Positions 3,130-55,352 of a DNA stretch of 64,000 nt are shown piece after piece (position 1 is the first letter of the stretch; each line of letters begins with the position of its first letter). A model generated the notes under the pieces. That model saw nothing but the letters and a program-made list of their open reading frames with translations, ran no database searches and was not told the origin of the DNA. The position numbers and the translations under genes are program-made. The stretch lies in assembly GCF_036507355.1 (NCBI RefSeq), contig NZ_AP027877.1. One strand, 5' to 3'. The stretch comes from Escherichia coli (GTDB taxonomy: Bacteria; Pseudomonadota; Gammaproteobacteria; Enterobacterales; Enterobacteriaceae).

Positions 3130-3335
3130 GGCAACTCCAGTTTTTGTATTTGTCTGGAAAAATTCACCGCCACAAACTACCACTAAAAATGTGGTTTTAT
3201 ATTTTTTGCCACCGTGAATATGTAATTAACAGTTCGTGAATCAACGCGAAAATAAGAATGAATATTGCGCCAGAGCAGGGAATGGCAATGTTTTGCGAAA
3301 TACACTGCGCTTATCACAACTGCGGATAATTAACG
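3130..3335. promoter_or_regulatory. Divergent ttdR / ttdA control region
   Basis: AT-rich 206-bp gap between divergent LysR regulator and its target operon. Confidence 0.5.
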
Positions 3336-4268: not shown

Positions 4269-4280
4269 ATCCACCAGAAA

Positions 4281-4898: not shown

Positions 4899-5002
4899 AA
4901 GCTGTTCCGTTTTGAAAATTCGTGTTCAACGATGAATCTGTGGATAATACGCACATTTCGCCGGAAGTGGTATCCGGTTAGCCAAAAAGCAGGCAGGACG
5001 TG

Positions 5003-5371: not shown

Positions 5372-5461
5372 TTTTACAGCTGTTAAACCAAACGGTTATA
5401 ACCTGGTCATACTGCAGTAGTTCGGACAAGCGGTACATTTTAATAATTTAGGGGTTTATTG

Positions 5462-6283: not shown

Positions 6284-6289
6284 TTGAGG

Positions 6290-6372
6290 AATAGTGTCGG
6301 ATGCCTGGCGTTGTCCAAGATTGCGTAGGCCGAATAAGGCGTTCACGCCGCATCCGGCAAAATGCCCAATAC
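6290..6372. repeat. REP (repetitive extragenic palindromic) element
   Basis: gccggatgcggcgtgaacgccttattcggcctac-type palindromic unit between uppP and cca. Confidence 0.7.
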
Positions 6373-7611
6373 TCATTCAGGCTTTGGGCAACGTTGTTCC
6401 TTCCAGCTGGCTACCGCCGCAATCCGCCGTCGGGTCAGCTCCTCGCGAATCTCCACACCTTTAAATCCCGCTTCAACGACGGCTTTTGTCGGCACTGACT
6501 GCGCCACTTCCCAGGCTTCGCGCAACCAACGGCCTTGCGGGTAGTCCGCTGATTCAAAACCGGTTCTGCCGCGCACGTCAGCCTCGCTGGTCAGCGCCAG
6601 TTGCTCGACACGCTGCGGTTTACGCCAGGCATCGATGGAATCAAATAATTTGACGATGGTTTTTGGGTTCAGCATTGGGAAGGTGTGGATGAGATCGTGA
6701 AACTCAGCCACCAGTCTGGCTAAATCGCGAATTTCATTTGGCACGCGCAGACGCTGGCATAGTTGTTCCACTAACTTAACACCCGCCGGGCCATGACCAT
6801 GATGACGCGGCCAGAGTTCTGGCGGCGTCAGTCCTTTACCGAGATCGTGGCATAAAGTTGCGAAACGGACATCGACCTGCGGACTCAGCATCGCCGCCAT
6901 TGAGAGCGTCATTAAGGTATGAATACCCGTGTCGATTTCCGGATGCCACTTGGCAGGGGCCGGAACACCAAACAGGGCGTCAATTTCCGGGAATAAAACG
7001 CGCAGTGCGCCGCAATCGCGCAGTACCTGGAAGAACACCTGTGGATTGCGGGTGGTGAGGGCGTTTTCTGTCTCTTTCCATACCCGTTCAGGCGTCAGGT
7101 GTTCCAGTTCACCCGCATGGGTCATCTCGCGCATCAACGCCAGAGTTTCATCGGCAATACGAAAACCGAGGTGGGCATAACGCGCAGCAAAACGCGCCAC
7201 GCGCAATACGCGTAACGGATCTTCGCCAAAAGCGGGGGAAACATGGCGCAACAGACGATTTTGCAGATCGCCCAGACCGTTGTACGGGTCGATAATCTCG
7301 CCGTTATCGTCCTGGGCCAGCGCATTAATGGTCAGATCGCGACGCTTAAGATCATCTTCCAGCGTGACATCCGGTGCGGCATAGCAGGTAAAACCGGTGT
7401 AACCGGAGCCGGATTTCCGTTCGGTACGTGCCAGCGCATACTCTTCATGCGTTTGCGGATGCAGAAACACAGGAAAATCGCGGCCTACCTGCTGGTAGCC
7501 CGCGTCGAGCATCTCCTGTGGCGTAGTGCCGACCACTACCCAATCTCTGTCTTTGACCGGTAGCCCTAACAATGCATCCCGAACAGCACCACCGACCAGA
7601 TAAATCTTCAC
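6373..7611 (-). CDS. cca: CCA-adding tRNA nucleotidyltransferase
   Basis: 412-aa ORF, N-terminal GG.VRD nucleotidyltransferase motif and HD domain (LCHDLGKG). Confidence 0.92.
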
Positions 7612-7674
7612 GCCATCATCCCTTCGTCAAATACACAATTCCTAATAATAAGACAGTGCAACGAAGAAGGCGAT

Positions 7675-8295
7675 TTAGTTCATCCAGCGATCTTTGCGTT
7701 TGCGGCTTGGGATCAGGTGCGGCAGTACCAGACCGAGCAGCAAGCCAAGCCCCAGCACGCCACCGCCATACATAAACCATTGCATGATGATGGTGCGCTG
7801 TTTGTCATCCAGCTGTACGCTGGCGGCATCGACCTTTTTCTGTGCGACAATCAGCTCGTTTTTCAGTTTCTGATTTTCTTCTTTTAACCCGTTGATCACG
7901 CTGTCGCTCTGCGCCACTTTTTGCTGCATTTCTGCGGTGCGCTGATTCCAGGTGTTATCGATATTGGTGAGTTTATCGGTCAGGGTTTTGACCTGATTTT
8001 CCAGATCTGGCACACGGGAGCGCAGGCTTGGCTCAGTGCTAAGTTGTTTCAACGGGATCCAGGCGGTACGGCCAGAGCTGTCTTTCACCTGGGCATAATT
8101 GGTGTTGGCGTCAGTTTGTAATAAGGTCACTTCCTCGCCGGCGTTAACCGTGCCCACGAGGCGATAATGATCTCCCGGACCGCTGCGGACCCAGGTATTC
8201 AGTTCGTCGGAAACATAGCGCGTTTCTTCAGCGTGTGAGACGGCAGTCGCGCTAAGTGCGAGTAAAGTTAATCCGATCAGGCGTAATTTTGGCAT
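7675..8295 (-). CDS. ygiM: SH3-domain protein with signal peptide and C-terminal membrane anchor
   Basis: 206-aa ORF; signal peptide, coiled-coil, C-terminal TM helix. Confidence 0.85.
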   Translation of the reverse strand: MPKLRLIGLTLLALSATAVSHAEETRYVSDELNTWVRSGPGDHYRLVGTVNAGEEVTLLQTDANTNYAQVKDSSGRTAWIPLKQLSTEPSLRSRVPDLENQVKTLTDKLTNIDNTWNQRTAEMQQKVAQSDSVINGLKEENQKLKNELIVAQKKVDAASVQLDDKQRTIIMQWFMYGGGVLGLGLLLGLVLPHLIPSRKRKDRWMN

Positions 8296-14182: not shown

Positions 14183-14261
14183 CCGGAAAGCGGTTCACAG
14201 ATCTCGCTTCGTACATGGCAGGCCTATTGACGCTGTTGTTTTTTCAACCTAGAGTAAAGGA

Positions 14262-14410
14262 ACAAGGGTAAGGGAGGATTTCTCCCCCCTCTGATGAGTT
14301 GTTAGTAAGTCGGGAAACTTAACAGTAACAACACAACCAGTATGATGACGAGCTTCATCATAACCCTTTCCTTCTATAAGGCCCCTTCCTCGGGAGGGGC
14401 TTTCCCGTTT
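14262..14410 (+). ncRNA. sibE: Sib-family antisense sRNA (antitoxin), copy proximal to hldE
   Basis: Promoter TTGACG(14227-32)-17 bp-TAGAGT(14250-55); terminator hairpin gcccctTcc/ggaggggc + U-tract at 14380-14410; fully antisense to the ibs ORF; ends approximate; D/E naming by synteny only. Confidence 0.7.
14302..14361 (-). CDS. ibsE: Ibs-family type I toxin, 19 aa (MMKLVIILVVLLLLSFPTY)
   Basis: Hand-translated minus-strand ORF, ATG 14361 to TAA 14302-04; hydrophobic 19-mer typical of Ibs; below ORF-track size cut-off. Confidence 0.75.
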   Translation of the reverse strand: MMKLVIILVVLLLLSFPTY

Positions 14411-14637
14411 CAGCCCCTTGCTGTCTCCCCGATTGTTGATGAGCGCCGGACCCCGCGCAACGCTTTCCCTGAAGCAGTTTTGCCTTCCCCGAGCGGTCAC
14501 GCAAAACGCTGCAACGTCCTGAGCATTTGCACCTTTTAGCGGAACGCAGATATAAAAAATCCCCGGCTTTTTGGGCCAGGGATATGTGTTAATGAAACCT
14601 TCTTGACGCTGATTTTTTTTCAACCTAAAGTAAAGGA

Positions 14638-14786
14638 ACAAGGGTGAGGGAGGATTTCTCCCCCCTCTGATTGGCTGTTAATAAGCTGCGAAACTTACGA
14701 GTAACAACACAATCAGTATGATGACGAGCTTCATCATAACCCTTTCCTTCTGTAAGGCCCCTTCCTCGGGAGGGGCTTTCCCGTTT
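14638..14786 (+). ncRNA. sibD: Sib-family antisense sRNA (antitoxin), copy proximal to yqiK
   Basis: Promoter TTGACG(14603-08)-17 bp-TAAAGT(14626-31); same terminator hairpin at 14756-14786; antisense to second ibs ORF. Confidence 0.7.
14678..14737 (-). CDS. ibsD: Ibs-family type I toxin, 19 aa (MMKLVIILIVLLLVSFAAY)
   Basis: Hand-translated minus-strand ORF, ATG 14737 to TAA 14678-80; paralog of the copy at 14302..14361. Confidence 0.75.
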   Translation of the reverse strand: MMKLVIILIVLLLVSFAAY

Positions 14787-14975: not shown

Positions 14976-16637
14976 TTATTCTACGTTTTCGGCGACGGGA
15001 GTTGTTGAGGTTAAGGGTGAAGTCAATGCAGCCAGTGAGCCGCCTGAAACGCCAATTTCATTGAGCAAGGAGTCAATCAGTGGTGCCTGTGTGCGGTAAG
15101 AGAGTGCGGCTGATAATGCTTGTTCCGCCAGGTTTCCGCCCCCCACATTACCCGTGTTTGCATCCCCCGCAGTACCACCACGATTCAGTCCATCGACCTG
15201 TATGATCTTAATACCATCGATCGACTTCATCGGCTCAACGGATTTCTCAATTACCGCAGGCAGCGCCTGCAATAATGCCAGTTTGAATTTAAGGCTGGTT
15301 TGTTCATCAGAAAGTACGTTGATAGCATCGTTCAGCGCACGTTGCGCTTCTGCTTCCGCCAGACCCTTTTTACGTGTAGCTTCGGCTAACTCAACGATAG
15401 CCGCCGCCTGCATCTCTGCGGCTTCTTTTTCTGCTTTTGCCCGCACGGTCAGTTCAACCGCTTTGGTTTCTGCATCCTGCGCGGCAGCGATTAGGGCAAC
15501 TTGTTTAGCACGATCGGCTTCTGCGGTCTGGCGAGTGGTTCCAACGTTTTGTTGGGCGCTTACTGCTTCTGCGAGTGCAAGGTTAGCACGCGCTTCTGCC
15601 TGGGACTGTTGTTCCGATTTGGCGGCAATAGCGATCGATTTCGTCTGGTTAGCGATTTCGGTGACCTGCTGCTGTTCGATCTCTTTAATGCGAACTTCAC
15701 GTTCAGCTTCAACTTTTCTTGAGCGGACGGCCTGTTCGCGGTCGATTTCTGTTTCCTGAATCTGTCGTTCAGCCAGAATTCGCGTCTGCTCTGCTTCACG
15801 ACGACGTTCAGCTTCAAAAGCCGCAATTTTCGCATTCTGCTCAGCGGTACGGGTTTTAACCTGCTGCTCCTGCTCAAGCGTCATAAACGCTTCTTGTTGT
15901 TCAATCTCCAACTTGCGCGAAAGTGCATCACGGTTTTTCTCACGCACCGCAACTTCTACATCCTGTTCAACTTCGTTACGCTCGCGGCGACGGCGCTCCG
16001 TCTCCTGAGTCAGTTTGGTTAAACCTTCGGCGTCAAAGGCATTGTTCGGATTGAAATGTTCTTTCGAGGTCTGGTTAAAGTTGGTAAGTGAAACGCTTTC
16101 CAGTTCCAGGCCGTTTTTCGACAGATCTTCAGCTACGGTATTTTGTACTCCCTGCACGAAGTTCTCGCGGGTATCCTGTAACTCATGCATGGTCATTTGT
16201 GCAGCTGTTGCACGGAGGGCATCGACGAATTTATCTTCAACCAACATACGTAAATCTTCTGGTGATAGCGTGCGTTGCCCCAACGTTTGGGCAGCGGTGG
16301 CAATCCCTTCTACTGAAGGTTTTACCCGCACAAAGAAAGCGACTACTACATCGACGCGCATACGATCTTTCGTAATCAGGCTATCAATGGTTGAGCGGCT
16401 GACTTCCAGCTTCAGAGTATTCATATTGATGGGGATTATTTCATGAAAGATCGGCATCACGATTGCGCCACCGCTCATTACCACTTTTTGCCCACCTAAA
16501 CCAGTACGAACAAAAGCTTGCTCTGCCGAAGCTCGACGATAGAGCCTGGCGAAAATAATTCCAATAATAAACAGAATGCATACGGCAATAATCGCGGTAA
16601 ACATCCAGGAGGGCACAGAATTAACAATATCATCCAT
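14976..16637 (-). CDS. yqiK: Flotillin-like SPFH/band-7 family membrane protein
   Basis: 553 aa; N-terminal TM helix, SPFH domain, long Ala/Glu/Lys/Arg-rich coiled-coil. Confidence 0.9.
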   Translation of the reverse strand: MDDIVNSVPSWMFTAIIAVCILFIIGIIFARLYRRASAEQAFVRTGLGGQKVVMSGGAIVMPIFHEIIPINMNTLKLEVSRSTIDSLITKDRMRVDVVVAFFVRVKPSVEGIATAAQTLGQRTLSPEDLRMLVEDKFVDALRATAAQMTMHELQDTRENFVQGVQNTVAEDLSKNGLELESVSLTNFNQTSKEHFNPNNAFDAEGLTKLTQETERRRRERNEVEQDVEVAVREKNRDALSRKLEIEQQEAFMTLEQEQQVKTRTAEQNAKIAAFEAERRREAEQTRILAERQIQETEIDREQAVRSRKVEAEREVRIKEIEQQQVTEIANQTKSIAIAAKSEQQSQAEARANLALAEAVSAQQNVGTTRQTAEADRAKQVALIAAAQDAETKAVELTVRAKAEKEAAEMQAAAIVELAEATRKKGLAEAEAQRALNDAINVLSDEQTSLKFKLALLQALPAVIEKSVEPMKSIDGIKIIQVDGLNRGGTAGDANTGNVGGGNLAEQALSAALSYRTQAPLIDSLLNEIGVSGGSLAALTSPLTSTTPVAENVE

Positions 16638-17298
16638 TATTAAATTTCCTTTTGATTAATAAATTACAATATTTGGGGCCAGGGATTGTTTTCCGCCAAA
16701 TATCGCGTTGCAGAAAGTCGGCAAATAATTAACACTTTGTCTCCTTTAGTGAAAATTTTTCCTTCTTCAGGCTCCAGTAGTAAATAATGTATTTGGCCAA
16801 ATTGATCGGTGAGTTTTCCTTCGCAGGGATTACCTGAAGTGGCTTGATGACCGGTAATTAATGCCATGCTACCAATATATTCTTCTTCTGTAATAGCTGA
16901 ACTATGGTCGCGTGGAATCCAGGGCGCAACTATTTTACCGGTATAATGCACCGCAATAATCGTAAACAGTAAACTGACAGGAACCACGAACAGGTTCGAC
17001 AGTGGTGATTGCCAGACCATGATGCAGGCATGCTGCAACAGGATGCCAATAAGACCAAAAAAACCAGCCAGCAAGCAGAGAACGACGAGAGCTGGCAATC
17101 TTCCGATATTGAGATAATGAAGTGCCTGGCTAATATGACCTGTGGTTATGGAATCATAATGGTCAAGATGTGCATCAAGAGCACCGGAGAGCATGTGACC
17201 GCAGATAAGCGCTAAAATTTCTAAAAGGCCGATCAACAGTACAGGTGATGCTGCCAACTTACTGATTTAGTGTATGATGGTGTTTTTGAGGTGCTCCA

Positions 17299-17574
17299 GT
17301 GGCTTCTGTTTCTATCAGCTGTCCCTCCTGTTCAGCTACTGACGGGGTGGTGCGTAACGGCAAAAGCACCGCCGGACATCAGCGCTATCTCTGCTCTCAC
17401 TGCCGTAAAACATGGCAACTGCAGTTCACTTACACCGCTTCTCAACCCGGTACGCACCAGAAAATCATTGATATGGCCATGAATGGCGTTGGATGCCGGG
17501 CAACAGCCCGCATTATGGGCGTTGGCCTCAACACGATTTTACGTCACTTAAAAAACTCAGGCCGCAGTCGGTAA
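17299..17574 (+). CDS. insA: IS1 InsA (transposition repressor, zinc-finger/HTH)
   Basis: 91 aa, [40 protein letters not shown]... Confidence 0.95.
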
Positions 17575-17996
17575 CCTCGCGCATACAGCCGGGCAGTGAC
17601 GTCATCGTCTGCGCGGAAATGGACGAACAGTGGGGCTATGTCGGGGCTAAATCGCGCCAGCGCTGGCTGTTTTACGCGTATGACAGGCTCCGGAAGACGG
17701 TTGTTGCGCACGTATTCGGTGAACGCACGATGGCGACGCTGGGGCGTCTTATGAGCCTGCTGTCACCCTTTGACGTGGTGATATGGATGACGGATGGCTG
17801 GCCGCTGTATGAATCCCGCCTGAAGGGAAAGCTGCACGTAATCAGCAAGCGATATACGCAGCGAATTGAGCGGCATAACCTGAATCTGAGGCAGCACCTG
17901 GCACGGCTGGGACGGAAGTCGCTGTCGTTCTCAAAATCGGTGGAGCTGCATGACAAAGTCATCGGGCATTATCTGAACATAAAACACTATCAATAA
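17493..17996 (+). CDS. insB: IS1 InsB' frame (made as InsAB' transposase by -1 frameshift)
   Basis: 167-aa ORF in the -1 frame relative to insA; A6C slippery motif at 17550-17556. Confidence 0.9.
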
Positions 17997-18339
17997 GTTG
18001 GAGTCATTACCAACAGTACAAAGGAAATAGCGAAAAGATAAGGGGTATTATAGTCGGCGAATAAAATCATATGTCACTCCAATGTCCATTTAGTGACGCA
18101 ATATTTACTTTGGGATAGTTTCCTTGCTTGCATTTATCTTTGTTAATAATAACATATGTTAGAGAAGTTCTGGAAGAGAAAGTCTTTTAATATGGTTTTT
18201 TTATTTTTCACTAAAAAGTGTGATCGGGGACAATATATTTACGCACGTTATGTTTAAAGGCACTACACTGATTGGGGAATACTGAAATCAGAAAAAGCAT
18301 ATGGCCTTAAAAGGTATGCGATAACCGGAGGATGTGCTT

Positions 18340-18540
18340 ATGGATCATAGTCTTAATTCTTTAAATAATTTCGATTTCCTGGCGCGTAGTTTTGCCAGAA
18401 TGCACGCAGAAGGTCGCCCGGTCGATATTCTGGCCGTTACTGGTAACATGGATGAAGAACATAGAACCTGGTTTTGCGCACGTTATGCCTGGTATTGCCA
18501 ACAGATGATGCAAACCAGAGAACTTGAATTAGAACACTGA
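18340..18540 (+). CDS. glgS: GlgS (surface composition regulator, formerly glycogen synthesis protein)
   Basis: ORF 18334..18540; start at ATG 18340 gives the 66-aa [27 protein letters not shown]... protein. Confidence 0.9.
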
Positions 18541-18574
18541 TATGACGGGCCGTCTGGCCCGTTTTTGTGTTGCT
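18541..18574. terminator. Terminator hairpin between convergent glgS and ubiK
   Basis: cgggccgtctggcccg stem-loop followed by TTTTTG. Confidence 0.6.
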
Positions 18575-18874
18575 TTATTCTGCTTTATCAATAGGCGGGA
18601 TAGCCGGAGGAGATTGAAGATCTGCTATCGAATTATTGCGCGCTTCCAGTTCACTGATGCGCTGCTCCAGTAACGCCAGTTTTTCACGAGTCCGTAACAG
18701 GACTTGCGTCTGTACGTCGAATTCTTCGCGGCTCACCAGATCGAGACGCGTCAGCTGCGCTTGTAGGGTTTGGCGGATTTTTTTCTCCACATCTTCCCCG
18801 AACTCCCTGATTCCTTTAGGCATTGATTCGTGAACCTGGCGAGCGATTTGCTCAATTTTTTTCGGGTCAATCAT
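18575..18874 (-). CDS. ubiK: Ubiquinone biosynthesis accessory factor UbiK (YqiC)
   Basis: ORF 18575..18934; start at ATG 18874 ([21 protein letters not shown]...), coiled-coil BMFP family. Confidence 0.85.
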
Positions 18875-18989
18875 TGTAGTTTCCCTGTACTGATAGGTGT
18901 TGAGTGCCATTGTAGTGCGATAAGGGTAAGTCATAAACCAGAATTATGTGAAGCTATGCGTTGCTGCCGCTAATCATTAGCGTTATAGT

Positions 18990-19247
18990 GAATCCGCTTA
19001 TTCTCAGGGCGGGGCGAAATTCCCCACCGGCGGTAAATCAACTCAGTTGAAAGCCCGCGAGCGCTTTGGGTGCGAACTCAAAGGACAGCAGATCCGGTGT
19101 AATTCCGGGGCCGACGGTTAGAGTCCGGATGGGAGAGAGTAACGATTCTGTCGGGCATGGACCCGCTCACGTTATTTTGGCTATATGCCGCCACTCCTAA
19201 GACTGCCCTGATTCTGGTAACCATAATTTTAGTGAGGTTTTTTTACC
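18990..19247 (+). promoter_or_regulatory. ribB 5' leader with FMN riboswitch (RFN element / sroG)
   Basis: Conserved RFN segments aggGCGGGGCGAAATTCCCCACCGGCGGTAAA ... GCCCGCGAGCGC ... CAGCAGATCCGGTGTAATTCCGGGGCCGACGGT ... AGTCCGGATGGGAGAGAG directly upstream of ribB; ends approximate. Confidence 0.8.
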
Positions 19248-19901
19248 ATGAATCAGACGCTACTTTCCTCTTTTGGTACGCCTTTCGAACGTGTTGAAAA
19301 TGCACTGGCTGCGCTGCGTGAAGGACGCGGTGTAATGGTGCTTGATGATGAAGACCGTGAAAACGAAGGTGATATGATCTTCCCGGCAGAAACCATGACT
19401 GTTGAGCAGATGGCGCTGACCATTCGCCACGGTAGCGGTATTGTTTGCCTGTGCATTACTGAAGATCGCCGTAAACAACTCGATCTGCCAATGATGGTAG
19501 AAAATAACACCAGCGCCTATGGCACCGGTTTTACCGTGACCATTGAAGCGGCTGAAGGTGTGACTACCGGTGTTTCTGCCGCTGACCGTATTACGACCGT
19601 TCGCGCAGCGATTGCCGATGGCGCAAAACCTTCTGATCTGAATCGCCCGGGCCACGTTTTCCCACTCCGCGCTCAGGCTGGTGGTGTACTGACGCGTGGC
19701 GGTCATACTGAAGCAACTATTGATCTAATGACGCTGGCAGGCTTCAAACCGGCTGGTGTGCTGTGTGAGCTGACTAATGACGATGGCACGATGGCGCGTG
19801 CACCAGAGTGTATTGAGTTTGCCAATAAACACAATATGGCGCTCGTGACTATTGAAGACCTGGTGGCATACCGTCAGGCACATGAGCGTAAAGCCAGCTG
19901 A
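19248..19901 (+). CDS. ribB: 3,4-dihydroxy-2-butanone 4-phosphate synthase
   Basis: 217 aa, [10 protein letters not shown] signature motif. Confidence 0.93.
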
Positions 19902-19933
19902 AAACCGCTGCTTAATTTACTGCCTTAATCAAG

Positions 19934-19970
19934 AAACCGAAGTTGTAGCAGGCTTCGGTTTTTATTTTTC
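19934..19970 (+). terminator. ribB intrinsic terminator
   Basis: aaaccgaag/cttcggttt hairpin followed by T-run. Confidence 0.7.
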
Positions 19971-20162
19971 CCTGCTATGCAAGATGTTAATTCCGCTTCT
20001 CTTTCTATGAGAAAATTTCATTAATATCAGGCATTCTTTTTCATTATGATCAAAATCATATAATTGTTCCGTTATTATGCGACCATATGAATATATCCGA
20101 AAAAGGATATGTGAAATTTATGCGCTAAATGTTTAGTATTGTTAAATATTAAGGGTAAAAGG

Positions 20163-20333
20163 ATGTTTATCGCCTGGTACTGGATTGTATTGATTGCTCT
20201 TGTTGTGGTGGGTTATTTCCTGCATTTGAAACGTTATTGTCGGGCGTTTCGCCAGGACAGAGACGCACTGCTTGAAGCGCGGAACAAATACTTAAACAGT
20301 ACGAGAGAAGAGACAGCCGAAAAGGTAGAATAA
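20163..20333 (+). CDS. Small single-TM membrane protein (possibly YqiD)
   Basis: ORF 20139..20333; start at ATG 20163 gives MFIAWYWIVLIALVVVGYFL + charged tail; identity not confirmed. Confidence 0.4.
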   Translation: MFIAWYWIVLIALVVVGYFLHLKRYCRAFRQDRDALLEARNKYLNSTREETAEKVE

Positions 20334-20390
20334 GGCTTTAGTGAAGCTAGCAGAAGTTGTCCATGCGCTGGACAACTTCTGATGTTGCTT

Positions 20391-21164
20391 TTAACCAATT
20401 CCCGCCGTTTGTAGCAGCACTAAACTGAATCCCATCACTGACATTCCACATAGTACGCCATAGCTGGGGTTATTATTAGGGTCAATCTCTTTGGCGAGCG
20501 GCATTAATTCATCAACCGAGAGCGCCACCATAATTCCTGCAACCGCCGCCATGATTGCCGCCATGACCACGGGGGAAATCATGCTACCGAGGATTAACCA
20601 CGCCAGCACACCACCAAGAATTTCTGCTAGTCCAGAAATCCCCGCCCACAGAATCGCCGTGCGTTTAGACCCCGTTGCTGCGTAAACCGGGCCTGCCACT
20701 GCCAGACCTTCAGGAATATTGTGCAACGCTACGGCCAGAGCGATGCCAAATCCCAGCTCCAGGTTGCTGCTCGCCGTGACAAAGGTGGCAATCCCTTCCG
20801 GGAAGTTATGCAGACTGATGCCGAGAGTGAGCAGAATGGCTGTGCGCTTGATCGATTTTGGCAACGGCTGCACCGATTTTTGCATTAAATCCTGCGGATG
20901 CGCATGTGGCAACATGCGGTCCAGGCCAAAATAGCCAAGCAGACCGAAGATAAACATTCCATAACCCAACACAGGCGACATTCCTTCAGCTGCTAGTGCG
21001 GCAGGAAGCATTTCCATTAATGAGATGAGCAACATGATCCCCGCCGCAAATCCTAGCGAAAACGCCAGTAAGCGGTTCGAGGGTTTTTGCCCGAGAACGC
21101 CGAGAAACGCGCCAATAAACGTGGCTGCCCCCGCCAGTATGGTCAGAATGAGAGGTACTGACAT
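20391..21164 (-). CDS. zupT: Zinc transporter ZupT (ZIP family)
   Basis: ORF 20391..21206; start at ATG 21164 ([16 protein letters not shown]..., 257 aa) with AAGGAG RBS. Confidence 0.9.
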
Positions 21165-21279
21165 CGACAACTCCTTATAAATCTTCACCTTCAGGCAGAT
21201 CGTCAAAATAACTGATGATCATCATCATTGTTATCCGGGTTCTTACTCCGCCGAACAAGCGTATTGTGAGGATATCAAA

Positions 21280-22095
21280 ATGACACCTTTAGTTAAGGAT
21301 ATCATCATGTCTTCAACACGTATGCCAGCATTGTTTTTAGGTCACGGTAGTCCGATGAACGTGCTGGAAGATAATTTGTATACCCGCAGCTGGCAGAAGT
21401 TGGGGATGACATTGCCACGCCCGCAAGCGATTGTGGTGGTTTCGGCTCACTGGTTTACCCGTGGAACAGGAGTGACCGCGATGGAGACGCCGCCCACGAT
21501 TCATGACTTTGGTGGCTTCCCGCAGGCGCTATACGATACACATTATCCTGCTCCGGGTTCGCCTGCGCTAGCACAGCGTCTGGTTGAGCTGTTAGCGCCG
21601 ATCCCGGTGACGCTGGATAAAGAAGCCTGGGGCTTTGACCACGGTTCCTGGGGCGTGCTGATTAAGATGTATCCTGACGCGGATATCCCGATGGTGCAGT
21701 TGAGTATCGACAGTAGCAAACCTGCCGCCTGGCATTTCGAAATGGGGCGCAAACTCGCGGCGCTGCGAGATGAAGGAATAATGTTGGTCGCCAGCGGTAA
21801 CGTGGTGCATAACCTGCGCACAGTGAAGTGGCACGGTGATAGTTCACCGTATCCGTGGGCGACGTCGTTTAATGAGTATGTGAAAGCGAATCTGACGTGG
21901 CAAGGGCCGGTAGAGCAGCATCCTCTGGTGAATTATCTCGACCATGAAGGTGGCGCGTTATCGAACCCAACGCCAGAGCACTATCTGCCGTTGTTGTATG
22001 TGTTAGGTGCGTGGGATGGGCAGGAGCCAATTACCATTCCGGTCGATGGTATAGAAATGGGCAGTTTAAGTATGCTGTCGGTGCAGATAGGTTAA
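21280..22095 (+). CDS. ygiD: Extradiol ring-cleavage dioxygenase family protein (DOPA 4,5-dioxygenase-like)
   Basis: 271-aa ORF; alternative start ATG 21307 (MSSTRMPALFLGHGSPMN) would give 262 aa. Confidence 0.85.
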   Translation: MTPLVKDIIMSSTRMPALFLGHGSPMNVLEDNLYTRSWQKLGMTLPRPQAIVVVSAHWFTRGTGVTAMETPPTIHDFGGFPQALYDTHYPAPGSPALAQRLVELLAPIPVTLDKEAWGFDHGSWGVLIKMYPDADIPMVQLSIDSSKPAAWHFEMGRKLAALRDEGIMLVASGNVVHNLRTVKWHGDSSPYPWATSFNEYVKANLTWQGPVEQHPLVNYLDHEGGALSNPTPEHYLPLLYVLGAWDGQEPITIPVDGIEMGSLSMLSVQIG

Positions 22096-22132
22096 CAATT
22101 ACCGGATGGCGAATGCCATCCGGCATCATTGA

Positions 22133-23293
22133 TTACTCAACAAAAATATGTGGATAAAACCGAGACATATCCTGGGTGATCAATGCACGGTCTTCACGAA
22201 TGCCAATTCCGGCGGGTTGATCGTTCACCAGCCAGCTACCAATCAGCATATAGCTGTCGCCGAATTTCGGTAACGGGTGGAATTGCTGAACAATCATCCC
22301 TTCTTCGCCATACGGACCTTCCGCTGCTTCAATGGTTTTGCCGTTTTCAATGATCGACACGTTTGCGCCTTCACGGGAGAAGATCGGTTTAACCACATAT
22401 TTTTCCATTTGCGGATGATCATCTTCCGCAAAATAAGCGGGCAGCAGGTTCGGGTGATTCGGGAACATCTCCCACAGTAGCGGTAGAAGTGCCTTGTTGG
22501 AGATAATGCTCTTCCACGCCGGTTCCAGCCAGCGTACGCCTGCATCCTCCAGCTTGGTGGAAAACATCTCACGCAACATAAATTCCCACGGATACAGCTT
22601 GAACAGGTTGGAAATTACCTGATCCTGTAAATCCGTGAACTGACCTTTTTCACCTAACCCGATATCGTCAATGTAGAGGAACTCGGTAGCGATTTCAGCT
22701 TCCGTCGCGCAGTCCTGCAAATACTGAATGGTTCCGCGATCTTCCACCGTGTCGCGACAGCAGGTGAGATGCAGCAACTGGAAGCCATACTGTTCACGCA
22801 GCTCAACGAAGCGATCGATCAGTTTTTCTTGCAGACTGTTAAACTGGTCGCTGCCCTCCGGCAAGTTACCGGCGTTAAGCTGATCTTCCAGCCAGATCCA
22901 CTGAAAGAACGCCGCCTCGTATAGTGACGTTGGCGTATCGGCGTTATTTTCCAGAAGTTTAGGTTCGCCAGTGCCATCCCACGCCAGATCAAGACGCGAA
23001 TAAAGCGATGGCTGGTGCGTCAGCCATGACTGGCGCACAAAACTCCAGGTGTGTTTTGGAATGCGGAATTTGGTCATCAGCTCATCGCTGGCGATCACTT
23101 TTTCCACCACTTTCAGGCACATCTGGTGCAGTTCGGCGGTGACTTCTTCCAGCTTTTCAACCTGGGCGAGGGTCAACTTGTAGTAAGCATCTTCACACCA
23201 GTACGGCTCGCCGTACATGGTGTGAAAATTGAAACCGTATTCGTGGGCTTTCTCACGCCAGTCCGGGCGCTCGGTAATACTGACTCTTTCCAT
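22133..23293 (-). CDS. ygiC: Glutathionylspermidine synthase-like ATP-grasp protein
   Basis: 386 aa, homologous to the Gss synthetase domain. Confidence 0.88.
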
Positions 23294-23298
23294 CGGTA

Positions 23299-23970
23299 TC
23301 AGCCACCCATTGAACGAGAAGAGGTGCCGGTTGCGCTACGCTGCATAGTGCTTTGTTTGGCAACAGATTCACCAAAACCGCCACGGGTAATGGTAGTGGT
23401 GGTCGCCGGTTTTGGTGCCATTGCCGTCTTCGGTACGGTCATGGTGCGGCCTGGCTGGGCTGCGCCATAGTTTTTACCCGTCGCGTCGGTATATTTACCG
23501 TAAGCCGGACTGGCTGGGTTTTTCGAGGAGAACAGCGGCTGCTGTGCAAATCCCGCGCCGCCGCCCATCAGACGCCCCATCATGTAACCGGCCATCAGCG
23601 GCATCCAGAAACTCCCGCTGGATTGCTGAGCCTGCGCCTGGTTTTCTGGTGCCATGCCAGCCTGGGCTGGTGCTTGCTGGCACTGACCTTCACCAAATTC
23701 AGCAACACAGTCTTCACGGGTGGCGTATTTCGGCGCAGTACGTTCGGCTTCCTTCAGCGCATTGTTGTACGCGGTGGTACATTCGGCGCTTTTGCCTGGG
23801 TTTGCAGCTGAACAGTCGTCAGCATTTTGATAGAGAGACACTGTTTCATCACTCTTTTCACAGCCAGCCAGCATAAAAACAGTGGCAACCGCGAGAGCGA
23901 CTGGTGTCAGATGGCGTGCGCTCCAGTTTTTGCGGAACGATGCGTGGCGTATGGATTTTGTCCGTTTCAT
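23299..23970 (-). CDS. ygiB: DUF1190 lipoprotein-like protein
   Basis: ORF 23299..24003; start at ATG 23970 ([15 protein letters not shown]...); adjacent to ygiC. Confidence 0.85.
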
Positions 23971-24117
23971 TTTTGTCTTCCGGGACCAGTGGTAAATACC
24001 CATCAGAATAGAGGATGGCTGGTCGAAATTGAAGCGAGAAGGGGGAAGAATGCGGCAGATAACCCGTATCTTTACGTTGCCTTACGTTCAGACGGGGCCG
24101 AAGCCCCGTCGTCGTCA

Positions 24118-25599
24118 TCAGTTACGGAAAGGGTTATGACCGTTACTGGTGGTAGTGCGTGCGGATGTTTGCTGAACGACGGGTGCCGGGCTATCAGGCG
24201 CATAACCATCAGCAATAGCATTCTGTTCCGGCGTTTGCGGGGCAACGTTTTCCGGATTAGTGGAAACCGGTTTGCTCAGCGCATTGTTCAGTGCCAGCAG
24301 ATCCTGCTCGTTCAACGTACCCAGGGCTGACTTAATATTCAGCTGATTAATCAGGTAGTTATAACGCGCATTCGCCAGCTCTTGCTTGGCGTTGTACAGC
24401 GTGGTGGTCGCATCCAACACATCAACAATGGTACGCGTACCGACCGAGTAGCCCGCTTCCATCGCGTCTAATGAGCTTTGAGCGGAAACTACGGCTTGTT
24501 TGTAGGCGTTAATACTACTGATAGAAGCATTAATGTTGTTGAAGGAGGAACGTACGGTTTGCACGACGCTACGATGCGCGCTTTCCAGTTGCTCGCTGGC
24601 ACCAACAAAGTTGTACTGTGCCTGTTTCACCTGCGAGTTAACCATTCCGCCCTGATAAATCGGCAGCGAGAAGCTCAGGCCAACTTTGTTCTGGCCCATA
24701 TTGCTATCGTCATACTGGGTACCAGCGGCACCACGGGTTTTCGAACCGCTATAAGAGGTGTCAGAAATCCCGGTAGAAGCCGTTAAATCCAGCGTCGGTA
24801 AGTGACCATCCTGCGCCTGGCGAATTTGCTCGCGCGCCAGGTCCTGGCTCAAGCGTGCCTGTAACAGCGACAGGTTGCGTTTTTCGGCTTCTTTCAGCAG
24901 CGCGTTAACCGGCTGTGGTTTGTCGGTTTTAAAGTTTTCGACATTCAGCGCCGCCAGTTCCGGATAGTAGTTACCGGTGATCTGGCGCAGCTGCTCTACC
25001 GCGTTATCAAGGTTATTACGTGCGGTCACTTCGTTCGCCAGCACGGTATCGTACTGCGCGCGGGCGTTCTGCACGTCGGTGATCGCTACCAGGCCCACGT
25101 TAAAACGTTGGGTGGTTTGATCTAATTGACGGTAGATCGCTTCTTTTTGTGCCTGTGTATAGGAAAGAACGTCAATAGCATTCAACACGTTGAAATAAGC
25201 GGTCGCGGTGTTGAGGATCAAGGTTTGCTGATCGGTCTGATATGTGACGTCCTGAATCCCTGCTGCTTTTTCCTGCAGCGTTAACGCACGCCATTTCGAC
25301 ATATCAAAAATGGATTGAGTTAACTGCAGGGACGCACTGGTCGCGTTAGAGTTGATGCCGTTCGCGTCGCGGTAGCCGTTGCTATAGGTGTAATCTGCAC
25401 CTAAACCTAGCTGTGGCAGTAATGGACTGCGCGCTTCATTAATTTTTTCAAAGGCAGCATCACGATCGGCGGCAGACTTACGCAATTCCGGGTTACTAAG
25501 GCGTGCTTGCTGATAAACTTGCATCAGGTTCTCGGCCTGGCTCAACGAACTGAACCCAGAAAGGCTCAGGCCGATAAGAATGGGGAGCAATTTCTTCAT
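24118..25599 (-). CDS. tolC: Outer membrane efflux channel TolC
   Basis: ORF 24118..25638; start at ATG 25599 (MKKLLPILIGLSLSGFSSLSQAENLMQVYQQA..., 493 aa). Confidence 0.95.
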   Translation of the reverse strand: MKKLLPILIGLSLSGFSSLSQAENLMQVYQQARLSNPELRKSAADRDAAFEKINEARSPLLPQLGLGADYTYSNGYRDANGINSNATSASLQLTQSIFDMSKWRALTLQEKAAGIQDVTYQTDQQTLILNTATAYFNVLNAIDVLSYTQAQKEAIYRQLDQTTQRFNVGLVAITDVQNARAQYDTVLANEVTARNNLDNAVEQLRQITGNYYPELAALNVENFKTDKPQPVNALLKEAEKRNLSLLQARLSQDLAREQIRQAQDGHLPTLDLTASTGISDTSYSGSKTRGAAGTQYDDSNMGQNKVGLSFSLPIYQGGMVNSQVKQAQYNFVGASEQLESAHRSVVQTVRSSFNNINASISSINAYKQAVVSAQSSLDAMEAGYSVGTRTIVDVLDATTTLYNAKQELANARYNYLINQLNIKSALGTLNEQDLLALNNALSKPVSTNPENVAPQTPEQNAIADGYAPDSPAPVVQQTSARTTTSNGHNPFRN

Positions 25600-25803
25600 T
25601 TGCATTCCTTGTGGTGAAGCAGTATTTAGCGCGATCAAACTGTAAAATTATTGCGGATTCTAGCAGAAGCCGCTACCGCAAAAGGTTGGCGTTACGTGCC
25701 ATAGGGCGTTAATGTGCCTCAATTTAACACATGACTGCTCAAACGGCAGTCAAACGTCGCTGAAATTCACATTTAATTCACTATTAGTGCCAGGACATTA
25801 ACA

Positions 25804-26433
25804 ATGCTTAAGCCAGACAACCTGCCCGTTACATTTGGCAAAAACGATGTAGAAATTATTGCACGAGAAACACTTTATCGCGGCTTTTTTTCATTAGATC
25901 TTTATAGATTTCGTCATCGTCTATTCAACGGGCAAATGAGTCATGAGGTACGGCGGGAAATTTTTGAGCGCGGTCACGCCGCAGTCTTGCTACCCTTTGA
26001 CCCAGTGCGTGATGAAGTTGTGCTGATTGAGCAGATTCGAATTGCCGCGTACGACACTAGCGAAACCCCCTGGCTACTGGAGATGGTTGCCGGGATGATT
26101 GAAGAGGGTGAAAGTGTGGAAGATGTTGCCCGTCGCGAAGCGATTGAAGAGGCGGGGCTGATAGTCAAACGGACCAAACCGGTGTTAAGTTTCTTGGCAA
26201 GCCCGGGGGGCACCAGTGAGCGTTCGTCAATTATGGTGGGCGAAGTGGACGCCACGACCGCAAGCGGTATTCACGGTCTGGCTGATGAAAACGAAGATAT
26301 TCGCGTTCATGTGGTAAGCCGGGAACAGGCATACCAGTGGGTAGAAGAGGGGAAAATCGACAACGCAGCGTCGGTCATCGCTTTGCAATGGCTGCAGCTG
26401 CATCATCAAGCGTTAAAAAATGAGTGGGCATAA
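25804..26433 (+). CDS. nudF: ADP-ribose pyrophosphatase (Nudix)
   Basis: 209 aa with Nudix box ([22 protein letters not shown]). Confidence 0.92.
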
Positions 26434-26856
26434 ATGAAGCGTTACACACCTGACTTTCCTGAAATGATGCGCCTGTGCGAGATGAACTTTTCACAATTGC
26501 GCCGTTTGTTACCGCGCAATGACGCACCCGGCGAAACTGTAAGCTATCAGGTGGCAAACGCACAATATCGGCTGACGATTGTGGAATCGACCCGATACAC
26601 TACCCTGGTGACAATAGAACAGACTGCGCCCGCGATCAGTTACTGGAGCCTTCCGTCAATGACGGTGCGTCTGTATCATGACGCGATGGTGGCTGAAGTG
26701 TGTTCAAGCCAGCAGATTTTTCGCTTCAAAGCGCGGTATGATTATCCTAATAAAAAGTTGCATCAACGCGACGAAAAGCATCAAATTAACCAGTTTTTAG
26801 CGGACTGGTTGCGATACTGTTTAGCACATGGAGCGATGGCGATTCCGGTTTACTAG
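26434..26856 (+). CDS. yqiB: DUF1249 family protein
   Basis: 140-aa ORF starting immediately after the nudF stop. Confidence 0.85.
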
Positions 26857-26880
26857 CGTCGTGAAACCTAAGGACACCAT

Positions 26881-27708
26881 TTGGAAAGCCTGTTAACCCT
26901 TCCTCTGGCTGGTGAGGCCAGAGTCAGGATTTTACAAATTACCGATACTCACCTGTTTGCACAAAAGCACGAAGCCCTGTTAGGGGTAAACACCTGGGAA
27001 AGCTACCAGGCGGTGCTGGAGGCGATTCGTCCACACCAGCACGAATTCGACCTGATTGTCGCGACAGGTGATTTAGCGCAGGATCAATCCTCTGCGGCCT
27101 ATCAGCATTTCGCTGAAGGCATCGCAAGTTTTCGTGCGCCCTGCGTCTGGCTGCCGGGCAACCACGATTTCCAGCCCGCGATGTACAGCGCGTTACAGGA
27201 TGCGGGTATCTCCCCGGCGAAGCGGGTATTTATTGGTGAGCAATGGCAAATCCTATTGCTGGATAGCCAGGTGTTTGGCGTGCCGCACGGTGAGCTAAGC
27301 GAGTTTCAGCTTGAGTGGCTGGAACGTAAACTGGCTGATGCGCCAGAGCGCCATACGTTGCTGCTGCTGCATCATCATCCGCTACCTGCGGGTTGTAGTT
27401 GGCTTGATCAACACAGCCTGCGTAACGCGGGCGAACTGGATACCGTGCTGGCGAAGTTTCCGCACGTCAAATACTTGCTGTGCGGTCATATTCATCAGGA
27501 GCTGGATCTCGACTGGAACGGTCGCCGCCTGCTGGCAACGCCGTCGACCTGTGTGCAGTTTAAGCCGCACTGTTCCAACTTTACGCTGGATACTATCGCG
27601 CCCGGCTGGCGTACTCTCGAGTTACATGCTGATGGCACGCTGACCACCGAGGTGCATCGCCTGGCGGACACACGTTTCCAACCTGATACCGCTTCAGAAG
27701 GCTACTGA
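26881..27708 (+). CDS. cpdA: 3',5'-cyclic AMP phosphodiesterase (calcineurin-like metallophosphoesterase)
   Basis: 275 aa; motifs TGDLAQD, GNHD, CGHIH. Confidence 0.92.
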
Positions 27709-28289
27709 TGTCTACGCTTCTTTATTTACACGGTTTCAACAGCTCGCCGCGCTCTGCAAAAGCGAGCTTGTTAAAAAACTGGCTGGCGGAACATCACCCT
27801 GACGTTGAGATGATCATTCCGCAGTTGCCGCCGTATCCTTCCGACGCGGCAGAGCTGCTGGAATCCATTGTCCTGGAACATGGCGGCGATTCGCTGGGTA
27901 TTGTCGGTTCGTCACTGGGGGGATATTACGCCACCTGGTTGTCACAATGTTTTATGCTGCCCGCAGTGGTGGTAAACCCGGCTGTGCGCCCGTTTGAACT
28001 GCTGACGGACTATCTCGGTCAGAACGAGAACCCCTACACCGGGCAGCAATATGTGCTAGAGTCACGCCATATTTACGATCTTAAAGTCATGCAGATTGAC
28101 CCGCTGGAAGCGCCGGATTTGATCTGGCTGCTGCAACAGACGGGAGATGAAGTGCTGGATTACCGCCAGGCGGTGGCGTACTACGCTTCCTGCCGCCAGA
28201 CTGTCATAGAAGGCGGCAACCACGCATTCACGGGCTTCGAAGATTATTTCAACCCGATCGTCGATTTTCTTGGTCTGCACCATCTCTGA
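27708..28289 (+). CDS. yqiA: Esterase YqiA (alpha/beta hydrolase)
   Basis: 193 aa, GSSLGG nucleophile elbow; ATG overlaps cpdA stop (TGATG). Confidence 0.9.
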
Positions 28290-28314
28290 CGATCAACTCG
28301 AATTGCTAACTTAA

Positions 28315-30210
<1,896 letters not shown>

Positions 30211-30257
30211 AGGAAAGAACATTGCCCGGTCAGGATGGCCGGGCAAACAAGGCAGGT

Positions 30258-30572
30258 TTAAATCCCCGGTTGCAGGATGCGGATATTCATCTCCAGCACG
30301 TCACCTTTTACGGCTTCGCTATACGCCTTCATGTGCGGGGTTTGCAGATGCGCTTCAAGGTGCGCGATGCTTTCCCACTGCTCAATCATCACGATAGAAT
30401 CCGGTGCCATAGACTGGAAACTCACGCCAGCAGCGCAATCCACCATTGGCGCATAGCCGTGGCAACCTTCTTCTTTCAGTACGGTTGGAACGATTTTAGC
30501 AAACTGATCCAATACCGCTTGACGGTGATGTTGACCAGGACGAGTACGGATTTCTGCGATTACGGTAAGCAT
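30258..30572 (-). CDS. ygiN: Quinol monooxygenase (ABM family)
   Basis: 104 aa, MLTVIAEIRTRPGQHHRQAVL... Confidence 0.88.
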   Translation of the reverse strand: MLTVIAEIRTRPGQHHRQAVLDQFAKIVPTVLKEEGCHGYAPMVDCAAGVSFQSMAPDSIVMIEQWESIAHLEAHLQTPHMKAYSEAVKGDVLEMNIRILQPGI

Positions 30573-30602
30573 GGTTAACTCCTTCTAAAGCCTGAGCTCT
30601 AG

Positions 30603-31184: not shown

Positions 31185-31293
31185 TTTTTAACCTCAAGGT
31201 GAGACGTTTGCCGACTATAGTACGTCACAGAGCGGTACGGTGAAATTAGCAAAATGTGCAAAGTCTTTTGCGAATTTAGCAAAAGTCTTACCC

Positions 31294-32643
31294 TTACCAG
31301 CTTACTTTCGCCTCAAATCCACCTTGTTCCGCATTCCCAAACTCAACATTCATGCCATGCAGCTTGGCGATTCGCTGGACAATCGATAGCCCAAGTCCAC
31401 TGCCGGTAGCGGTTTGTCCGGGTGGGCGATAGAAGCGTTCGCCAATTCGCGCTAGTGCCTCTGGCGTCACACCGGGGCCGTTATCCCTCACGATGAAATT
31501 ATCGGCATTCAGCGTGACGTCTACCACGCTGCCCTGTGGACTGTAGCGCACGGCGTTATCCAGCAAATTTCGCACCAACAAACTTAGCAATAGCGGTTGC
31601 CCGGTGCGTTTGATGCTGTGGGCATTTAGTGTCAGTCGCACGTCAATTTTCGCCTGCTGCGCCGTGTGGTAAATATCCATCACCGACGATTGCAGGAGAT
31701 CTTCAAGCGGGATCTCCGCGACGTCCTGAAGGTTATCCAGTGAGTCCAGCCGCGATAGCGTGAGCAGTTGATCAACCAGACGAGTAGCGCGATCGATCCC
31801 GGAATGTAATTGGAGCAGTGCTTTTTTCCGCGCCTGCGGATCATCGTCAGAGAGCTGCGCAACTTCGGTTTGCACTTTCAGCGCCGTTAACGGGCTACGA
31901 AGTTCGTGAGCTGCGTCAGAGGTAAAGCGTCGTTCACGAACCATCATCGCATGTGTGCGGGCGAACAGTTGATTTAGCGACTCAACCAGTGGTCGCACTT
32001 CGCTGGGTACGCCAGTCGCGTTTAGTGGTTTTTCCGAGTCAGGGTCACGCATACGTAGTGCCAGCGCCAGTTTGTTCAGCGGCGCGAGTTCACGACCCAG
32101 TAGTACCATCATGATGATTAACATAATCGGCAGTGCGACCAACCACGGGATCAATTGCCCGGCAACAATCGCCAGCGCCATGTCTTCACGGTATTCCCAT
32201 TCCTGACCAACAACGATGCGATATTTGCCATCAGGTGAGGTCATCCAGACAAAACGCCATTGATCTTTATCGCCCACCAGTTGCCCGTCAGCAAAACCTT
32301 CCCGTTGATAGCTATAGGGAATATCTTCTCCGTTATCGCCATCGTTAAGGACCATTCTGCCGTCGTGGGTAAAGATGGCAAAGGTCAGCGCATCGTCATC
32401 AACATGACCGTGTTTTAATTTATTTGGCGTCTGTGCCATGCGATCCGCCGCGTTGATTTCGTTGAGATCGAGCGTACTTAACCGCTTGGCAAACAGCATC
32501 AGTTGGGTGTCGAACAATTCATCGACGTTATCCGTTGTTTGTTTCCAGGCGACAAAGCTGGAAAGCAGCCAGGTCACCGAGGCCAGAATTAAAAAGATTA
32601 GCGTCAGCCTGACGCGCAGACTAAGACGTTGGGTAAATTTCAT
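31294..32643 (-). CDS. qseC: Two-component sensor histidine kinase QseC
   Basis: 449 aa; two TM helices, H-box AHELRSPL, HATPase domain. Confidence 0.92.
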
Positions 32644-34378: not shown

Positions 34379-34486
34379 TGGGGAATCTTTACCGGAGTGT
34401 GAGCCAAATCACTCGCGATAAGTTTGAGCGAACAATGCCACAGGCGTATTGTTGTTGGGCTTATAATTTCTCCGGTAAGGAATACC

Positions 34487-51387: not shown

Positions 51388-51396
51388 AGTAGAATT

Positions 51397-51615
51397 GCCT
51401 GATGCGCTACGCTCATCAGGCCTACAAAATCTATTGCAACATGTTGAATCTTCGTGCGTTTGTAGGCCGGATAAGGCGTTCACGCCGCATCCGGCATTAG
51501 GTGCTCAATGCCTGATGCGCTACGCTTATCAGGCCTACAAAATCTATTGCAACATGTTGAATCTTCATGCGTTTGTAGGCGGATAAGGCGTTTTCGCCAC
51601 ATCAGGTAAGAGTGA
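51397..51615. repeat. BIME-type REP cluster: two tandem ~113-bp units
   Basis: gcctgatgcgctacgctYatcaggcctacaaaatctattgcaacatgttgaatcttcRtgcgtttgtaggc... repeated at 51397 and 51510. Confidence 0.85.
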
Positions 51616-54308: not shown

Positions 54309-54464
54309 GACCTCTCCTTTCCACCGTTCAATTTCGAAACAATGTTTCTAGTTTAGCGATTCGCCAGCGCGTATCCCGTAGTCTGGCTCACAGAGTGACG
54401 AAAAACTGGGCAAAAACACGTGCTTATGCTTTGCTTAAAAAAACACCAACTGAGGAGTGCAACG

Positions 54465-55352
54465 ATGCCGCGTTTAACCGCCAAAGATTTCCCACAAGAG
54501 TTGTTGGATTACTACGACTATTACGCTCACGGGAAAATCTCGAAACGTGAGTTCCTCAACCTGGCGGCGAAGTATGCGGTGGGCGGGATGACGGCATTAG
54601 CGTTGTTTGATTTGCTCAAGCCAAATTATGCGCTGGCGACTCAGGTAGAGTTTACCGACCCGGAGATTGTTGCTGAGTACATCACGTATCCTTCGCCAAA
54701 TGGTCACGGCGAGGTACGGGGTTATCTGGTGAAACCCGCAAGGATGAGCGGCAAAACGCCAGCCGTGGTGGTGGTGCATGAGAATCGTGGACTGAATCCG
54801 TATATCGAAGATGTGGCACGGCGAGTGGCGAAGGCGGGGTATATCGCCCTGGCACCTGACGGCTTAAGTTCCGTTGGAGGTTATCCGGGAAATGATGATA
54901 AAGGTCGTGAGCTGCAACAGCAGGTTGATCCAACCAAACTGATGAATGATTTTTTTGCCGCAATTGAGTTTATGCAACGCTATCCGCAAGCGACAGGCAA
55001 AGTGGGTATTACCGGATTTTGCTATGGCGGTGGCGTATCGAACGCGGCGGCTGTCGCGTATCCGGAACTGGCCTGCGCGGTGCCGTTTTATGGTCGTCAG
55101 GCACCCACTGCCGATGTGGCGAAGATTGAAGCGCCTTTACTACTCCACTTCGCGGAACTGGACACCCGAATCAACGAGGGCTGGCCTGCTTACGAGGCGG
55201 CGTTGAAAGCCAATAATAAGGTTTATGAGGCGTATATCTATCCGGGGGTTAATCACGGATTCCATAATGATTCCACGCCCCGTTATGACAAATCTGCCGC
55301 CGATCTTGCCTGGCAAAGGACACTGAAATGGTTCGATAAATATCTCTCCTGA
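54465..55352 (+). CDS. yghX: Dienelactone hydrolase family protein, intact
   Basis: ORF 54420..55352; start at ATG 54465 behind GAGGAG RBS; GFCYGG nucleophile motif; putative signal region SKREFLNLAAKYAVGGMTALALF...ALA. Confidence 0.8.
   Translation: MPRLTAKDFPQELLDYYDYYAHGKISKREFLNLAAKYAVGGMTALALFDLLKPNYALATQVEFTDPEIVAEYITYPSPNGHGEVRGYLVKPARMSGKTPAVVVVHENRGLNPYIEDVARRVAKAGYIALAPDGLSSVGGYPGNDDKGRELQQQVDPTKLMNDFFAAIEFMQRYPQATGKVGITGFCYGGGVSNAAAVAYPELACAVPFYGRQAPTADVAKIEAPLLLHFAELDTRINEGWPAYEAALKANNKVYEAYIYPGVNHGFHNDSTPRYDKSAADLAWQRTLKWFDKYLS

Follow-up and report, generated by a model that had tools for sequence, protein, structure and literature searches.

The window analysed here, a stretch of 64,000 nucleotides from Escherichia coli, carries glgS and ubiK (yqiC) directly side by side, and the question raised by this locus is whether the fimbrial operon that separates the two genes in K-12 MG1655 was never present here or has been lost. 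A preliminary description of the same DNA had left it at "never present or cleanly lost" and had given the K-12 order as an IS2-disrupted ygiL-yqiGHI lying between ubiK and glgS. That order agrees with the MG1655 annotation, which gives ubiK, ygiL, yqiG (split by IS2), yqiH, yqiI and glgS in this order. The K-12 locus encodes the "Yqi-like" chaperone-usher fimbriae (Wurpel et al. 2013, PMC3559732). We consider it highly probable that the window keeps the ancestral, never-interrupted junction with its shared predicted terminator, and that the K-12 state is derived from it by recombination.

The genes of the window run in the order yqiK, yqiJ (interrupted), IS1, glgS, ubiK, FMN riboswitch, ribB, yqiD and zupT. 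The features at the junction and on its ribB side are as follows.

18340..18540, plus strand: glgS, 66 aa (ORF list and RefSeq annotation of matching genomes).
18541..18574: spacer between the convergent glgS and ubiK, exactly 34 bp, with one shared hairpin.
18544..18563: hairpin with an 8-bp stem (6 GC pairs) and a 4-nt loop; T-run at 18563..18567.
18572..18643: segment without K-12 counterpart, 72 bp, comprising the last ~20-23 codons of ubiK and 3 bp of the spacer (blastn breakpoints and alignments).
18575..18874, minus strand: ubiK / yqiC, 99 aa, with a C-terminus of the putatively ancestral type (ORF list, alignments and PF04380).
18996..19144, plus strand: FMN riboswitch ahead of ribB (Rfam RF00050, 120.9 bits).
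19248..19901, plus strand: ribB, 217 aa (ORF list and tblastn).
19902..20162: ribB-yqiD interval, the second fimbrial insertion site, empty here too.

That glgS and ubiK converge at a distance of 34 bp, as first described, was reproduced from the ORF list and the sequence. For the interval 18334-18874 outlined at that time, the ubiK end and the glgS stop (TGA, 18538-18540) hold, but 18334 is not the start of glgS: it is an in-frame GTG upstream of the RefSeq-annotated ATG at 18340. The stop codon of ubiK is 18575-18577. The 66-aa product belongs to the GlgS family, as Pfam PF08971 is recorded on the 66-aa product that stands beside an identical UbiK, and it is 100% identical by tblastn to the glgS region of O157:H7 TR01, whose product RefSeq calls GlgS; residue 59 is Thr in the window and in O157:H7 and Ala in K-12. 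Likewise, PF04380 (BMFP) is recorded, precomputed, on a 99-aa protein identical to the UbiK/YqiC of the window. RefSeq names both ubiK and glgS in the same 801 bp of other genomes, and among the matches listed the pairing of ribB with ubiK is kept in almost all of at least 80 loci. The compact junction of the window is real but ordinary.

A single hairpin between the two stops had also been claimed, and this is what the spacer holds, its function as a terminator being a prediction. The hairpin reads GACGGGCC-GTCT-GGCCCGTT, then TTTTGTGTT, and the plus strand continues after the stem with TTTTTGTGTT. Measured against shuffled sequence, both strands fold about 4.5 standard deviations below expectation: the plus (glgS) strand at -19.5 kcal/mol (z = -4.5), the minus (ubiK) strand at -14.9 kcal/mol (z = -4.6). 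The GC-rich stem-loop stands directly 3' of the stop codon, and on the glgS strand a U-tract (UUUUUGUGUU) follows the stem, whereas the ubiK strand has UCAUAUCA after the stem, a poor U-tract. The element is a canonical predicted intrinsic terminator for glgS, and for ubiK a hairpin without a U-tract. It resembles the shared terminators of convergent genes in its GC-rich 8-bp stem and 4-nt loop between two stop codons and in the U-run on the glgS strand, and differs from them in that the ubiK strand lacks a proper U-tract.

The window is collinear with 80 kb of K-12 except for a few indels. Its identity to MG1655 is 96-98.9%, in line with the non-K-12 background proposed earlier, and among 5,426 complete E. 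coli genomes none exceeds 99.3% identity to it over 24 kb, the best being O145:H28 strains. Rare variants of YgiQ, HybC and TtdT in the window recur on only about six contigs, which are all labelled E. coli (records BED20909.1, BED20927.1 and BED20870.1 among them); no record has the exact YqiK, and ParC is too common to be informative. A Shigella origin was rejected in view of these labels and of the single IS in 64 kb. The window comes from an E. coli lineage that is distinct from K-12 and has been sampled sparsely. At the junction, blastn homology with K-12 extends on the glgS side to window position 18571 and resumes on the ubiK side at 18644; in place of the intervening 72 bp, K-12 has 6,637 bp that contain another ubiK tail, ygiL-yqiGHI and IS2. 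UbiK is 99 aa long in the window versus 96 aa in K-12, and the C-terminal tails differ. Compared with the K-12 ygiL-yqiGHI locus (Wurpel et al. 2013, PMC3559732), the window is alike in the flanking genes, with ubiK nt 1-128 and most of glgS identical; it is unlike in that the K-12 flanks beside the insert are diverged and that the operon and IS2 are found only in K-12.

Not even a trace of a fimbrial operon was detected. Searched by tblastn against the 64-kb window, neither the four fimbrial proteins of K-12 nor the four of the related EA/I operon (see below) gave a match better than E = 0.1; for the K-12 proteins the best E value in the whole window was 0.12, and no operon lies between ubiK and glgS. 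Together with the 34-bp spacer, these searches uphold the statement that the junction carries no fimbrial operon, and neither at the junction nor elsewhere in the window did tblastn reveal remnants of fimbrial genes or scars left by IS elements.

The polarity of the difference was clarified by an outgroup scan with one genome per species, which yielded at least 80 loci with a ubiK relative; several representatives of Escherichia species stood outside the sample. Wherever glgS is present among the loci listed, it follows directly after ubiK in convergent orientation. The two genes are placed tail to tail in E. albertii, a cryptic Escherichia, Salmonella arizonae and seven Citrobacter, and also in Klebsiella, Raoultella, Pseudocitrobacter and Superficieibacter. 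The hairpin ACGGGCC-N4-GGCCCGT, with a variable loop, is found in most outgroup spacers (Escherichia, Salmonella, Citrobacter, Klebsiella and Raoultella). Moreover, the UbiK of the outgroups ends in ..PAPAIPPVDPQE or a close variant (..PPAIPPxD..E), which is the type of the window and not that of K-12, and the UbiK of E. fergusonii has a tail of the ancestral type too. Because the outgroups share the compact junction, the hairpin and the UbiK tail type, we read the compact junction as the original, ancestral enterobacterial arrangement and the K-12-type operon as derived.

Of the two possibilities named at the outset, "never present" is favoured, since the junction, the hairpin and the UbiK C-terminus match those of the outgroups and the flanks are without K-12-type variants. 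The allele of the window thus appears structurally ancestral, with no mark of an earlier operon. A deletion of a K-12-type operon in place, for example via a nearby IS1 or IS2, has in its favour that an IS1 stands 530 bp from the junction and that IS2, IS1 and ISKpn26 have hit the operon in other strains. Such a deletion should have left the K-12-type ubiK tail or flank variants behind, but the window has the ancestral tail and flanks and is free of fimbrial remnants by tblastn, and the IS1 retains an intact 9-bp target duplication in yqiJ and caused no adjacent deletion; in view of the flank sequences we regard this course of events as practically excluded. The features that describe the IS1 insertion are listed here.

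14976..16637, minus strand: yqiK (553 aa, flotillin family), downstream of the disrupted yqiJ; collinear with K-12, whose YqiK it matches at 99% by tblastn.
16664..17243, minus strand: yqiJ 3' fragment, nt 51 onward, severed from its start by IS1; the alignment with K-12 ends at 17243.
17244..18011, plus strand: IS1, intact, 768 bp, with insA at 17299..17574 and the insB frame to 17996.
18012..18070, minus strand: yqiJ 5' fragment, nt 1-59, with its ATG at 18068-18070 (alignments).
18071..18339: intergenic region between the divergent yqiJ and glgS, 269 bp, intact; the IS1 leaves the region upstream of glgS unaffected.

This element is the sole IS in the 64-kb window. It has the length of 768 bp, terminal inverted repeats (GGTGATGCTGCC.../...GGAGTCATTACC), the insA and insB frames and a 9-bp duplication expected of IS1, and is 98.96% identical to IS1B copies. 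The duplicated target, AACAGTACA, stands at 17235..17243 and at 18012..18020 and occurs once in K-12, at nt 51-59 of the 630-nt yqiJ. The distance of about 500 bp given in the preliminary description is right (530 bp from the spacer), but the implied link to the missing operon is not: the IS1 is a simple insertion into yqiJ with an intact 9-bp duplication and therefore had no part in the absence of the operon, so that it was rejected as the cause. Judged from its position, the IS1 interrupts yqiJ after nt 59, which would part yqiJ-yqiK from their promoter, and it probably affects the expression of yqiK. The yqiJ-glgS intergenic region differs from those of O157, K-12 and O111 at 3-8 of 254 alignment columns. 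In E. coli X14-3 (NZ_CP084055.1), where the fimbrial operon is present, an IS1 occupies exactly the same position in the same orientation; either this is a hot spot for insertion, or the two strains have a tract in common. Far heavier IS1 damage than in the window is seen in three loci from genomes of about 4.4 Mb with identical UbiK (L084, L085 and L087), where three or four IS1 copies around glgS replace yqiJ and IS1 stands beside ribB too.

We then compared the junction across the 5,426 complete E. coli genomes, and both states were found. A contiguous ubiK/glgS junction is present in 2,062 (about 38%) and the K-12-type operon, in three identity bands, in 3,366; the two counts add up to about the whole set. 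With the 801-bp junction contiguous in 2,062 independently finished genomes (up to 99.6% identity) and in the outgroups as well, it is hardly credible that an assembly artefact collapsed the region in the window.

A related operon is found across ribB from this site. It encodes ExPEC adhesin I (EA/I, Yqi) in APEC/B2 strains (Antao et al. 2009, PMC2771359), is likewise of the chaperone-usher type, and in APEC E18055 was seen in the interval from yqiD to ribB. Compared with the K-12 proteins, its products show identities of 59, 55, 49 and 37.5%. The EA/I operon is present at yqiD/ribB in 991-994 of the 5,426 genomes, and all 991 full-length matches are contiguous with an empty ubiK/glgS junction. 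As every genome with full-length EA/I has the empty junction, the K-12-type and EA/I operons never co-occur; that "Yqi" and "Yqi-like" fimbriae are never found together in one strain had been noted earlier (Wurpel et al. 2013, PMC3559732). Strains with EA/I are like the window in the empty ubiK/glgS junction and in the 99-aa type of UbiK, and unlike it in having the four-gene chaperone-usher operon at yqiD/ribB. In the window EA/I is absent from this site, positions 18644-31288 being collinear with K-12 and tblastn returning noise only. The strain of the window is thus without both of the related fimbrial operons that flank ribB-ubiK, and this condition, shared with O157:H7 TR01, applies to about 1,070 of the 5,426 genomes (20%).

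O157:H7 TR01 (NZ_CP033605.1) offers the closest comparison at the junction described here. It has the same order yqiK-yqiJ-glgS-ubiK-ribB-yqiD-zupT, the 34-bp spacer, the 99-aa UbiK, 99.3-99.6% identity to the window and no fimbrial operon at either site. The differences are the IS1 in yqiJ, which the window alone has, one substitution in UbiK (Ile in the window for Val, ..NNSIADL..) and one mismatch in the spacer.

In strains with EA/I (locus L095), the flanks on the yqiD/zupT side are very diverged from window positions 19902..20627, with 22/133, 39/150 and 21/150 differences per ~150 bp, the same pattern as beside the K-12-type operon. Four-gene chaperone-usher operons related to Yqi also stand directly beside ribB in Citrobacter, Enterobacter, Lelliottia, Klebsiella spallanzanii and Pseudocitrobacter (loci L010, L018, L020, L024-L026, L029-L031, L068, L074 and L076, at positions of about 3000-7900). 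Their proteins show about 30-50% identity to those of K-12, and the ubiK side stays compact. The ribB side may be the older home of the Yqi fimbrial family.

An ancestral allele structure is not proof that the lineage never had the operon, as an empty allele may have replaced a K-12-type one. In such a clean secondary loss, a recombination tract from an operon-free E. coli would have replaced the K-12-type allele of an ancestor. Short recombination tracts form a mosaic in this region, the haplotypes are identical outside the diverged block, which would make crossovers easy, and acquisition followed by loss or vertical spread has been proposed for such loci (Wurpel et al. 2013, PMC3559732). However, nothing in the window requires such a step. 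Over 24 kb the closest complete genomes belong to O145:H28 strains, and the junction is empty in O157:H7 TR01, which ranks with the top matches there. From the window alone the outcome would look the same as a junction that never had the operon. We consider this replacement unlikely and retain the never-interrupted junction as the preferred reading.

How the operon came into K-12-type strains is suggested by the sequence around it. The K-12 block has a GC content of 40.1% versus about 51% in its flanks, and a search of the island borders for direct or inverted repeats, which would be a sign of site-specific or transpositional insertion, found none that reach 9 bp. In a seven-way alignment, the E. 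coli haplotypes show 0/128 differences over ubiK nt 1-128 and 0/162 over the ~157 nt at the 5' end of glgS. Next to the insert they differ at 17-19/104 positions in ubiK nt 129-232 and at 15/77 in the glgS 3' end and spacer, so that flanks 16-19% diverged from the empty allele adjoin identical stretches. In the same columns the window differs from E. albertii at 12/104 and 6/71, that is, less than the haplotypes differ from each other. The K-12-type alleles of MG1655, O111:H- 110512 and N1024 have the same borders and the same flank variants, and the operons of O111:H- 110512 and N1024 are about 94-96% identical to that of K-12.

A K-12-like UbiK tail (..ENRST..ETLPPTL; ..ENRSTVTVVKDDQETLPPTL) was also found on two enterobacterial contigs of assembled reads from Logan, L104 (152-846) and L105, which have about 78-83% nucleotide identity to E. 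coli. Here ubiK and glgS are adjacent with no fimbrial genes between them, GlgS has 70 aa, and the 191-bp spacer contains two hairpins. Because a diverged version is encoded on enterobacterial contigs without the operon, the K-12 tail appears to be a genuine ubiK allele and not a chance fusion. The organism of L104/L105 was rejected as the donor, being too distant at this level of identity. A blastn search with the diverged ubiK segment against 80 genome loci found no donor of the K-12-type block; the best matches, at 85-87%, were still E. coli, with cryptic Escherichia and E. albertii next at 82%.

From these data we infer acquisition by recombination in K-12-type strains. The low-GC chaperone-usher operon ygiL-yqiGHI would have entered by homologous recombination, in the simplest reading as a single import whose donor was diverged and whose crossovers fell within ubiK and glgS, and it would have carried a foreign ubiK 3' end and a foreign glgS 3' end along with it. 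The allele of the window would never have received this block, and it lacks the alternative EA/I operon too. A wider proposal is that yqiD-ribB-ubiK-glgS exists as three strictly exclusive haplotypes of ~10 kb, and that the K-12 type was imported from an unsampled enterobacterial or Escherichia-like lineage beyond E. albertii, swapping the UbiK C-terminus; we lean towards this only slightly. If it is true, the UbiK of 62% of E. coli, among them K-12, ends in a xenologous tail whose gene segment is linked to a fimbrial operon, and the window provides a clean ancestral reference allele with which to date and trace the import.

Whether Yqi-like fimbriae are encoded at a fixed chromosomal site is an accessory polymorphism of E. 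coli that has already been catalogued (Wurpel et al. 2013, PMC3559732; Antao et al. 2009, PMC2771359). It has little weight for biology at large and its points of use are mainly practical; what is added here is modest, namely the polarity of the event, the hyperdivergence of the flanks and the existence of two UbiK tails. The C-terminal forms of UbiK (99 versus 96 aa) track the fimbrial haplotype, which calls for caution in generalising results obtained with the UbiK of K-12.

Several further features were recorded elsewhere in the window. The mqsR-mqsA toxin-antitoxin pair (a 928-bp interval in K-12, 3167819-3168747) is absent at 34380..34386, where ~5 bp replace it between the ygiV and ygiS sides, and ygiZ with its surroundings (a 593-bp interval in K-12, 3171833-3172426) is absent between qseC and mdaB at 31288..31294. 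Between cca and bacA, 36 bp of the window (6325..6360) align to two nearby K-12 positions, which makes K-12 ~90 bp longer there and is probably a difference in repeat copies. Two Sib antitoxin RNA loci lie in tandem at 14227..14376 and 14603..14752 (Rfam RF00113, 141 and 148 bits); they represent the sibD/sibE region with ibs toxins, and the two units of ~357 bp are 93.6% identical. Direct repeats of ~96 bp at 51396..51491 and 51509..51603, 93.8% identical, match K-12 3150602-3150809 in the yghA/exbD interval, and are probably REP-type intergenic repeats. Finally, yghX, which the preliminary description had called intact, is indeed an unbroken reading frame (54420..55352, GTG start, 310 aa), while it is a pseudogene in the K-12 annotation; its product we take to be dienelactone-hydrolase-like.
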